DNA of 64,000 nucleotides from Escherichia coli (GTDB lineage Bacteria > Pseudomonadota > Gammaproteobacteria > Enterobacterales > Enterobacteriaceae). Within the stretch, counting starts at the first letter, position 1. Each line of letters starts with the position of its first letter. Positions 19,870 through 34,079 of the stretch are shown here, piece by piece. The DNA is taken from NCBI RefSeq assembly GCF_003018235.1, contig NZ_CP027437.1, one strand, 5' to 3'. The notes beneath the pieces are model-generated. The model searched no databases, was not told the DNA's origin, and worked only from the letters and a program-made list of their open reading frames with translations. The translations under genes and the position numbers were made by a program.

Positions 19870-20053
19870 GGCCTGTCCTTAACTGTATGAAATTGGGATA
19901 CAACAGGTAGCATACCCGCTCAGAGAATATGCGGAAGTAAGGATTTAGCATATCTATATGCAGAAGGGAAATAATGACATGCAAGATGGAATAAGGGGCG
20001 GCATAAGCCACCCCTGTTTCACACAAGCGGTTTACAAAATAACCGGTAGATTG

Positions 20054-20815
20054 TTACCGCCACATCGCGTGTTTATCGCGATAGCAATCGACCCACATCG
20101 CCGTCGCACCACAAACGGCAACGGGCATGATGAACAGATTAAGCAGCGGGATCATCGTAAACAGGCTGGTTAAAGCACCAAACTGCATATTGGTGATTTT
20201 GCGTGTGCGCAGGGCGGTGCGCATCTCTTTAAACGGCACTTTGTGGTTATCGAAGGGGTAATCGCAATACTGGATGGCTAACATCCAGGCGCTAAACAGG
20301 AACCACAGTACCGGCGCGACGGTTTGCCCAATACCAGGGATGAAGTAAAGAATTAGTAATACAATTGCGCGCGGCAGATACCAGGCAAATTTTTGCCATT
20401 CGCGTTTCATGATTCGCGGCACATCTTTCATGATACCGAAAATCCCGGTATCTGGCGGTGTAGCGCCAGTCAATCGTGCTTCCAGTTGTTCAGCCAATAA
20501 ACCATTGAACGGAGCGGCAATCCAGTTAGCAATCGTTGAGAAGAAATAGCCAAACACTAACAGCACAGAGATGACAGCCAGAGGCCACAACAGATAGCTC
20601 AGCCATTGTAACCAGTCCGGAACATAACTCATGAGAGTCGGGATCCAGACATCGAGTTGCGTAAAGAGCCACCAGAATGCGCCCCCCATCAACAAAATAT
20701 TGACCAGCAGCGGTAAAATAACGAAACGCCGAATCCCAGGTTGCGAGACGAGCTTCCAGCCTTGCGCAAAATAGTAAAAACCGCTGCGTGGGGCAGATGT
20801 GAATGATGAAACCAT
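20054..20815 (-). CDS. cysZ: sulfate transporter CysZ
   Basis: 253-aa polytopic membrane ORF adjacent to cysK. Confidence 0.9.
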
Positions 20816-21044
20816 AATCAGGATGAGCTCCTTTTGACCAATCCCAGGAAAATTCTGCGTATTTTACCGGGTAATTGCGCAATGGACAGTTAGGATATGT
20901 TCGAAAAAACAGCAAAAAGCACGATTTCATCTATCTTTGTGCTGTGAAAGTTAATAGTGCACTTGCACTTGAGGTAATCGGCAAATACTCTTAGTGAGTA
21001 AATGTTTGCCGTGGTGGCAAGGTGTTAGAACAACAGAGAATATA

Positions 21045-22031
21045 ATGATGCAGGATTTGCGTCTGATATTAATCATTGTTGGCGCGATCGCCATAATCGC
21101 TTTACTGGTACATGGTTTCTGGACCAGCCGTAAAGAACGATCTTCTATGTTCCGCGATCGGCCATTAAAACGAATGAAGTCAAAACGTGACGACGATTCT
21201 TATGACGAGGATGTCGAAGATGATGAGGGCGTTGGTGAGGTTCGTGTTCACCGCGTGAATCATGCCCCGGCTAACGCCCAGGAGCATGAGGCTGCTCGTC
21301 CGTCGCCGCAACACCAGTACCAACCGCCTTATGCGTCTGCCCAGCCGCGTCAACCGGTCCAGCAGCCGCCTGAAGCGCAGGTACCGCCGCAACATGCTCC
21401 GCGTCCAGCGCAGCCGGTGCAGCAACCTGCCTATCAGCCGCAGCCTGAACAGCCGTTGCAGCAGCCAGTTTCGCCACAGGTCGCATCAGCGCCGCAGCCA
21501 GTGCATTCAGCACCGCAACCGGCACAACAGGCTTTCCAGCCTGCAGAGCCTGTAGCGGCACCACAGCCTGAGCCTGTAGCGGAACCGGCTCCAGTTATGG
21601 ATAAACCGAAGCGCAAAGAAGCGGTGATTATCATGAACGTCGCGGCGCATCACGGTAGCGAGCTAAACGGTGAACTGCTTCTTAACAGCATTCAACAAGC
21701 GGGCTTCATTTTTGGCGATATGAATATTTACCATCGTCATCTTAGCCCGGATGGCAGCGGCCCGGCGTTATTCAGCCTGGCGAATATGGTGAAACCGGGA
21801 ACCTTTGATCCTGAAATGAAGGATTTCACTACTCCGGGTGTCACTATCTTTATGCAGGTACTGTCTTACGGTGACGAGCTGCAGAACTTCAAGCTGATGC
21901 TGCAATCTGCGCAGCATATTGCCGATGAAGTGGGCGGTGTAGTGCTTGACGATCAGCGCCGTATGATGACTCCGCAGAAATTGCGCGAGTACCAGGACAT
22001 CATCCGCGAAGTCAAAGACGCCAACGCCTGA
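21045..22031 (+). CDS. zipA: cell division protein ZipA (N-terminal TM, P/Q-rich linker, FtsZ-binding domain)
   Basis: ORF track 20994..22031; ATG at 21045 gives 328 aa starting [21 protein letters not shown]. Confidence 0.93.
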
Positions 22032-22062
22032 TACACTTAAGGCAAATTAACTCCTCTTCGAA

Positions 22063-22084
22063 CCCCCGCTTGTCGGGGGTTTTT
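22063..22084 (+). terminator. hairpin plus T-run between zipA and ligA
   Basis: CCCCCGCTTGTCGGGGGTTTTT. Confidence 0.55.
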
Positions 22085-22092
22085 AGCATTGA

Positions 22093-24117
<2,025 letters not shown>

Positions 24118-30792: not shown

Positions 30793-30868
30793 TGGTGGGT
30801 CGTGCAGGATTCGAACCTGCGACCAATTGATTAAAAGTCAACTGCTCTACCAACTGAGCTAACGACCC
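30793..30868 (-). tRNA. lysV: tRNA-Lys (anticodon UUU)
   Basis: Reverse complement reads GGGTCGTTAGCTCAGTTGGTAGAGCAGTTGACTTTTAATCAATTGGTCGCAGGTTCGAATCCTGCACGACCCACCA. Confidence 0.95.
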
Positions 30869-30872
30869 GAAG

Positions 30873-30948
30873 TGGTGGGTGATGACGGGATCGAACCGCC
30901 GACCCCCTCCTTGTAAGGGAGGTGCTCTCCCAGCTGAGCTAATCACCC
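30873..30948 (-). tRNA. valY: tRNA-Val (anticodon UAC)
   Basis: Reverse complement reads GGGTGATTAGCTCAGCTGGGAGAGCACCTCCCTTACAAGGAGGGGGTCGGCGGTTCGATCCCGTCATCACCCACCA. Confidence 0.95.
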
Positions 30949-30994
30949 ACTTCGGTACTTCACATTGCTACAAGAAATTTAGCTGGCGAGAAAG

Positions 30995-31070
30995 TGGTGG
31001 GTGATGACGGGATCGAACCGCCGACCCCCTCCTTGTAAGGGAGGTGCTCTCCCAGCTGAGCTAATCACCC
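30995..31070 (-). tRNA. valX: tRNA-Val (anticodon UAC)
   Basis: Identical 76-nt copy. Confidence 0.95.
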
Positions 31071-31114
31071 ACTTCTCAATTTCTTGCTACACGGCGGAGA
31101 CTACATAAAGTAGT

Positions 31115-31190
31115 TGGTGGGTGATGACGGGATCGAACCGCCGACCCCCTCCTTGTAAGGGAGGTGCTCTCCCAGCTGAGCTAATCACCC
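31115..31190 (-). tRNA. valU: tRNA-Val (anticodon UAC)
   Basis: Identical 76-nt copy; first in the operon. Confidence 0.95.
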
Positions 31191-33888: not shown

Positions 33889-33964
<76 letters not shown>

Positions 33965-34003
33965 AATTTTGCACCCAGCAAATTTGGTACGTAAACGCAT
34001 CGT

Positions 34004-34079
<76 letters not shown>

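Follow-up and report, generated by a model that had tools for sequence, protein, structure and literature searches.

The open reading frames (ORFs) that lie on top of one another over the linker of zipA are very probably compositional by-products without a coding function. In the window, by which we mean the entire 64,000-nucleotide stretch of Escherichia coli DNA that was analyzed, this segment encodes the P/Q domain of the cell-division protein ZipA, its DNA is biased in composition, and this bias is sufficient to account for the ORFs. The alternative frames do not carry the signature of coding sequences, and the segment is polymorphic for insertions and deletions among E. coli strains. These length changes would have arisen through in-frame repeats and would be tolerated by the flexible tether that the linker forms, and we hold this explanation, taken as a whole, with high confidence.

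Identity of the gene and composition of the linker DNA

Regarding the identity of the gene, its product matched the Pfam family ZipA_C (PF04354) over aa 193-316 (E = 1.1e-44; score 151.9 bits, cutoff 23), the complete ZipA chain in PDB 9iue (3.9e-214), and the structures of the isolated FtsZ-binding domain (PDB 1f47/1f7w) over aa 185-328 at 1e-90. In the closest complete genome, that of strain KE55 (99.9% identity), the RefSeq zipA is the same 987-bp CDS. The divergent cysZ (20054-20815, minus strand) is located upstream and ligA (22102-24117, plus strand) downstream, and the RefSeq annotation of this order was identical in six E. coli genomes; the 24 kb surrounding the linker showed 95-99% identity to thousands of E. 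coli genomes. A single N-terminal anchor was read from the sequence as a hydrophobic stretch at aa 5-26, and, judging from composition, a charged region and then a P/Q-rich linker lie between this anchor and the globular domain. The features considered in the present study are listed in Table 1.

Table 1. Positions in the window of zipA, the domains of its product, repeats within the linker, and ORFs in alternative frames
Feature	Position	Strand	Basis or remarks
zipA CDS, cell-division protein ZipA, 328 aa plus stop	21045..22031	+	ORF, Pfam, PDB, RefSeq
N-terminal membrane anchor, aa 1-28	21045..21128	+	hydrophobic run in sequence; limits from PMC6904479
Charged region, aa 29-85	21129..21299	+	limits from PMC6904479; 56-61 aa across 86 sequences
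P/Q domain, aa 86-185, flexible tether, compositionally biased core	21300..21599	+	composition; PMC6904479
C-terminal FtsZ-binding globular domain, aa 186-328	21600..22028	+	Pfam PF04354; PDB 1f47/1f7w
CAGCAGCC, upstream 8-nt direct repeat	21360..21367	+	bounds a natural 99-nt (33-aa) deletion; repeat family D5
CAGCAGCC, downstream 8-nt direct repeat	21459..21466	+	bounds the 99-nt deletion; 99-nt spacing
12-nt unit CCGGTGCAGCAA, part of QPVQQ	21414..21425	+	once in the window; alignments
+1-frame ORF, 97 aa, Arg/Ser-rich, judged spurious	21262..21555	+	null P = 0.67; pN/pS 1.4-2.9; stops in relatives
Antisense ORF, 97 aa, Ala-rich, GTG start, judged spurious	21271..21564	-	null P = 0.72; pN/pS 1.1-4.9
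Antisense ORF, 81 aa, TTG start, Arg/Leu-rich, judged spurious	21180..21425	-	frame r0; pN/pS 0.65-1.5
Antisense ORF, 66 aa, Gly/Cys/Ala-rich, judged spurious	21434..21634	-	third codon positions coincide with those of zipA; pN/pS 0.11-0.25
Antisense ORF, 48 aa, GTG start, judged spurious	21507..21653	-	frame of the 81-aa ORF; pN/pS about 1; no Pfam match

The domain map given in PMC6904479 places the transmembrane helix at aa 7-28, the charged region at aa 29-85, the PQ domain at aa 86-185, and the globular FtsZ-binding domain at aa 186-328, and its account of the PQ domain, citing Ohashi et al. 2002, is that of an intrinsically unstructured, P/Q-rich flexible tether. Both the gene and the domain in the window are those of this description, with boundaries and P/Q richness that agree with it, and the protein is 99-100% identical to ZipA of other E. 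coli strains. The window ZipA differs in that it is the 328-aa form with one copy of QPVQ on a haplotype nearest the two-copy alleles, carries S148 in the linker, and shows the rare change P273L outside the linker. Published abstracts call zipA an essential gene of E. coli.

The first-pass annotation had placed a P/Q-rich linker of biased composition at 21250-21640, and the domain map, GC content, C and T frequencies, and entropy all agree with this assignment. This segment corresponds to aa 69-199 and reaches a little beyond the P/Q domain at either end, starting in the last part of the charged region and running approximately 14 codons into the FtsZ-binding domain; the peptide that had been quoted from it is aa 131-152 (nt 21435-21500). 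P, Q, A, V, and E together make up 76% of aa 69-199, and the DNA contains 36% C and 14.6% T, whereas each accounts for approximately 25% of the window. Within aa 86-185, the proportions of P, Q, and A are 30, 24, and 16%, respectively, and 48 of the 100 codons are CAG, CCG, CCT, or CAA. The amino-acid entropy of the linker is 2.5-2.8 bits versus 3.5-4.0 in the rest of ZipA, and its GC content is 0.64-0.69 with flanks of approximately 0.5. Compared with the window as a whole, the DNA of the P/Q domain has essentially the top GC content (0.65, rank 0.0016) and the lowest trinucleotide entropy among 300-nt stretches of the 64 kb (5.17 versus 5.72 ± 0.07, rank 0.0004).

The term low-complexity, which had also been applied to this DNA, was borne out in the compositional sense, as this entropy minimum indicates, but not in the sense of tandem repeats, because Tandem Repeats Finder reported no array in 21000-22100 at a minimum score of 30. 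The direct repeats of the linker are degenerate (65-94% identity) and their spacings are all multiples of 3, in keeping with QPxQQP-like peptide units; the linker may thus be described as biased DNA with degenerate in-frame repeats. An Rfam scan of 20000-23000 gave sub-threshold matches only, none of which was within the linker.

One of these sub-threshold matches, to RF02745 (Rev42_5p_UTR, soft-rot Enterobacteriaceae), extended over 20558-20991 on the plus strand with 46.8 bits against a gathering threshold of 229 (E = 1.6e-11); this interval includes most of the spacer between cysZ and zipA along with the 5' portion of cysZ, which is encoded on the opposite strand, and the match may reflect conserved sequence upstream of zipA. 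In the gap that separates the zipA stop from the ligA start codon, a strong terminator-like hairpin (CCCCCG-CUUGU-CGGGGG, then UUUUU) was noted at 22063-22084 on the plus strand, with a minimum free energy of -15.5 kcal/mol and a z-score of -2.0; it is absent from the list produced by a consensus terminator scan. This hairpin ends 17 nt before the ligA ATG (22102), which raises a question concerning the transcription of ligA. A sigma-54 site inside cysK, listed at 2126 bp from zipA (PMC4591121), was considered and set aside as irrelevant to the linker. Farther along the window, two tRNA clusters look ordinary, one for Lys(UUU) and three Val(UAC) at 30793-31190 on the minus strand and one for two Ala(GGC) at 33889-34079 on the plus strand.

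In the FtsZ-binding domain, codon 273 of the window allele (21861-21863, CTG) encodes leucine, and the other 85 sequences of the comparison all have proline there. No identical zipA was found among 5,426 complete E. coli genomes (best match 99.9%); the P273L allele is nevertheless real, if rare, because the exact protein has been recorded from 21 public contigs. ZipA F269 contacts the C-terminal peptide of FtsZ (PMC8669495), and P273L is located four residues away. The thermosensitive allele zipA1 consists of four changes including Y229C (PMC8669495), and an identity of P273L with zipA1(Ts) was rejected because the window retains Y229.

Open reading frames overlapping the linker

Five ORFs of 48-97 aa were found in alternative frames over the linker, one on the plus strand and four on the minus strand, in accordance with the earlier observation that overlapping ORFs occur here on both strands. 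The mean ORF depth over the linker was 3.81 versus 1.98 ± 0.69, which places it in the top 0.24% of the window, while the count of ORFs overlapping it, namely six, is not unusual and is reached by 16% of windows.

In order to obtain a null distribution for these ORFs, the ZipA protein was held fixed and synonymous codons were permuted within the gene 2000 times, with the longest stop-free run being recorded in each frame. The runs observed in the five other frames were 58-107 codons, against null means of 78-123, and the probability that the null equaled or exceeded the observed run was 0.67-0.79; therefore, the alternative ORFs are no longer than the amino-acid sequence of ZipA alone predicts. 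The frequency of stop trinucleotides per position is 0.020 in the linker versus 0.038 in the window, which is approximately half the background. According to the mechanism that we propose, selection on the linker would act mainly on composition and approximate length and not on the exact sequence, as a disordered tether would require a P/Q/A-rich composition but no particular sequence. A linker built almost entirely from CCN, CAG/CAA, and GCN codons would be encoded by C-rich, T-poor DNA, in which TAA, TAG, TGA, and their reverse complements would be rare in all six frames, such that the five non-coding frames would passively stay open.

A different explanation for the open frames is that one of them is a genuine overlapping gene for a small protein, the candidates being the Ala-rich 97-aa antisense ORF and the 66-aa antisense ORF. 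We compared pN/pS between the window linker and other E. coli alleles as well as four sister Escherichia lineages. The substitutions in the linker follow the reading frame of zipA, with 34 of the 52 that separate it from E. albertii falling on position 3 of zipA codons, and pN/pS in the zipA frame was 0.05-0.20. The +1 frame gave 1.4-2.9, the frame in which the antisense 97-aa ORF lies gave 1.1-4.9, and that shared by the 81- and 48-aa ORFs gave 0.65-1.5. The range of 0.11-0.25 obtained for the 66-aa ORF in the linker may appear to favor a coding function; however, this frame gave similar values (0.11-0.49) in the C-terminal domain, in which many stops interrupt it and no ORF exists, and for this reason the low ratio appears to be explained by the wobble position that this frame shares with zipA. 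Purifying selection was thus not detected by pN/pS in any alternative frame in the Escherichia comparisons, a low ratio being confined to the wobble-sharing frame. Taken together with the permutation test and the halved frequency of stops, the ratios above 1 in the two 97-aa frames uphold the statement in the first-pass annotation that the compositional bias explains the overlapping ORFs.

The conservation of starts and stops is relevant to the same alternative. All five ORFs are intact in each of the seven E. coli alleles compared, which is in line with a genuine gene, but carries little weight at a divergence of 1-2%. This integrity fails across sister Escherichia lineages, Citrobacter, Salmonella, Klebsiella, and Kluyvera. 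In the K-12-like, O157, WP5, and EC67 alleles, the 81-aa ORF has CTG in place of its TTG start, and this ORF is interrupted by stops in two sister Escherichia lineages, Escherichia sp. E1V33 among them. The antisense 97-aa ORF lacks its GTG start in E. albertii as well as in two further Escherichia lineages, and is interrupted by a stop in Escherichia sp. E1V33. The +1-frame ORF contains an internal stop in Escherichia sp. MOD1-EC7003 and S. enterica arizonae, and the 66-aa ORF has lost its start and gained two stops in E. albertii, with two to six stops in Citrobacter, Klebsiella, and Kluyvera.

Signals that may accompany an expressed gene were also sought. A scan of the Pfam library (E <= 0.1) returned no family for any alternative product, and a consensus scan of both strands of 20700-22200 returned no sigma-70-like promoter. 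Shine-Dalgarno pairing at the alternative starts was at the background level, although zipA and ligA themselves score weakly by this measure, near background. Literature searches brought up no report of overlapping-frame expression.

Public databases hold some records of these frames. None of the five exact alternative products was present among approximately 15 billion predicted proteins, a collection in which the exact ZipA sequence is present. A homology search with the antisense 97-aa ORF recovered approximately 30 clusters of relatives, mostly from contigs shorter than 2 kb, and in a few NCBI records, namely from E. coli, Shigella flexneri VA-6, E. albertii TW07627, and Klebsiella pneumoniae IS22, such relatives have been called as genes and named 'Uncharacterised protein' or 'regulatory protein AlgP'. 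These calls may be taken in favor of an overlapping gene; however, they are rare, and of the two that were examined, that of S. flexneri VA-6 lies inside an intact and separately annotated zipA, whereas that of GCA_900449145.1 lies where zipA and ligA are themselves fragmented, presumably by indel errors. The antisense calls were located at positions 1501-1695 of locus L087 and 1501-1785 of locus L088, which are the counterparts of 21271-21564 on the minus strand of the window. The database relatives of the +1-frame ORF are frameshifted ZipA fusions, such as P0046, in which aa 1-74 of ZipA are followed by the +1 frame, and they provide direct evidence for the earlier wording that this DNA "spawns spurious ORFs".

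AlgP is an Ala/Pro/Lys-rich regulatory protein of Pseudomonas, and its sole resemblance to the antisense ORF is an alanine-rich low-complexity composition. The antisense ORF differs from it in having no Pfam match, in lying antisense within zipA, and in showing no purifying selection, and no recognizable membership in a sequence family was found for it in the Pfam library, to which this search was confined, at E <= 0.1. The label probably goes back to a mis-annotation of low-complexity sequence that some records took over from others. 'Shadow' ORFs in the non-coding frames of GC-rich or otherwise biased genes are a familiar annotation artefact. The ORFs over the zipA linker share with them a composition-driven depletion of stops that opens both strands over a real gene, and the occasional annotation of such frames by gene callers. 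They differ from the usual case in that only a 300-nt segment of a genome with approximately 50% GC is affected, and in that the driver is the amino-acid composition and not the genome-wide GC content.

Considering these results together, it is very improbable that any of the overlapping ORFs is a genuine gene, and the chance that an antisense ORF in the linker, whether that of 97 aa (21271-21564) or that of 66 aa (21434-21634), is actually translated appears to be smaller still. If it were translated, a young overlapping gene, restricted to Escherichia and derived from sequence that its composition had left open, would reside within a division gene that is essential.

Length variation of the linker

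The linker had also been proposed as a likely site of indel variation between strains, and the alignment of zipA across strains bore this out. A zipA gene was found in 5,425 of the 5,426 complete E. coli genomes, and three length classes were recovered and aligned, of 987 bp (328 aa), 999 bp (332 aa), and 888 bp (295 aa); the indels that distinguish them are all in frame and all inside the linker. The one complete genome without a zipA match and two matches on plasmid-typed records are unexpected, given that zipA is essential and chromosomal, and assembly or labelling problems may lie behind them.

The 999-bp form carries a second, imperfect tandem copy of the 12-nt unit CCGGTGCAGCAA (QPVQ). 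A 56-nt probe across the duplication was fully covered in 2338 of the 5426 complete genomes (43%), and this frequency agrees with the 25 of 60 found in a systematic genome sample. Although the window allele has one copy, it is four substitutions away from the two-copy allele of WP5 and 12 away from the one-copy K-12-like allele, and it keeps CAA at the 12-nt junction, where K-12 has CAG. These relationships suggest that the unit may have been lost or gained more than once, or moved by recombination.

In the 295-aa form, the segment between the two CAGCAGCC repeats, which are 99 nt apart in the window, is missing. This form was found in E. coli EM10-18-28, on a haplotype two substitutions from WP5, and in S. 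flexneri VA-6, on a haplotype three substitutions from the K-12-like allele. Since the two deletion alleles are 10 substitutions apart, the deletion most likely arose independently on two haplotypes, and such recurrence is what slippage between direct repeats would predict. In addition, in 31 of 5427 records a single place accounts for less than 80% of the linker query; these records, one of which was examined, may reflect larger linker indels, and their number is an approximate count of deletion-type alleles.

Across a wider set of 86 enterobacterial sequences, consisting of 79 loci from a genome collection, the alleles of six E. coli genomes, and the window, the P/Q domain ranged between 67 and 127 aa with 30 distinct lengths and a mean identity to the window of 62%, while its contents of P and Q stayed at approximately 0.2-0.36 and 0.18-0.34, respectively. 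The first 28 aa of these orthologues are invariant in length with 99% identity, and the C-terminal domain is 143-144 aa. This comparison points to a linker in which composition and rough length are conserved and the exact sequence is not.

The proposed mechanism also covers these length changes. QPxQQP-like degenerate peptide repeats, being in frame, would supply short direct repeats in the DNA, and replication slippage or unequal recombination between them would add or remove linker units without disturbing the frame, changes that a flexible tether would tolerate. The linker may instead be regarded as a contingency locus, namely a hypermutable simple-sequence repeat that switches the expression or function of ZipA on and off. 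A polymorphism as common as 43% versus approximately 56% of genomes, and the occurrence of the same deletion on different haplotypes, are compatible with such a switch. However, a switch of this kind is at odds with the failure of Tandem Repeats Finder to detect an array, with repeats that are short and degenerate, and with indels that are without exception multiples of 3 and leave zipA in frame. Moreover, the two 12-nt copies differ at two positions, which implies an old duplication and not rapid cycling, and an off state is expected to be lethal in a gene described as essential. We accordingly give a contingency locus hardly any credence, and retain the explanation that in-frame gains and losses of linker units, arising between degenerate repeats, would be accommodated by the tether.

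Implications for annotation and for ZipA

The linker described here is the textbook P/Q domain of ZipA and its shadow ORFs are of a familiar type; the finding is already known in kind, has mainly housekeeping value, and opens no new question. That ORFs accumulate over zipA is to be expected from a disordered linker rich in P, Q, and A, and these ORFs should stay unannotated, which is of practical relevance because the antisense ORF does appear as a gene in a few public records, in some of them under the misleading name 'regulatory protein AlgP'. With respect to the biology of the protein, the natural series of 295, 328, and 332 aa in E. coli and Shigella, together with linkers of 67-127 aa across Enterobacteriaceae, indicates that an essential protein would tolerate the loss of a third of its linker, and this series may serve as a modest resource for relating the length of the tether to the anchoring of FtsZ.
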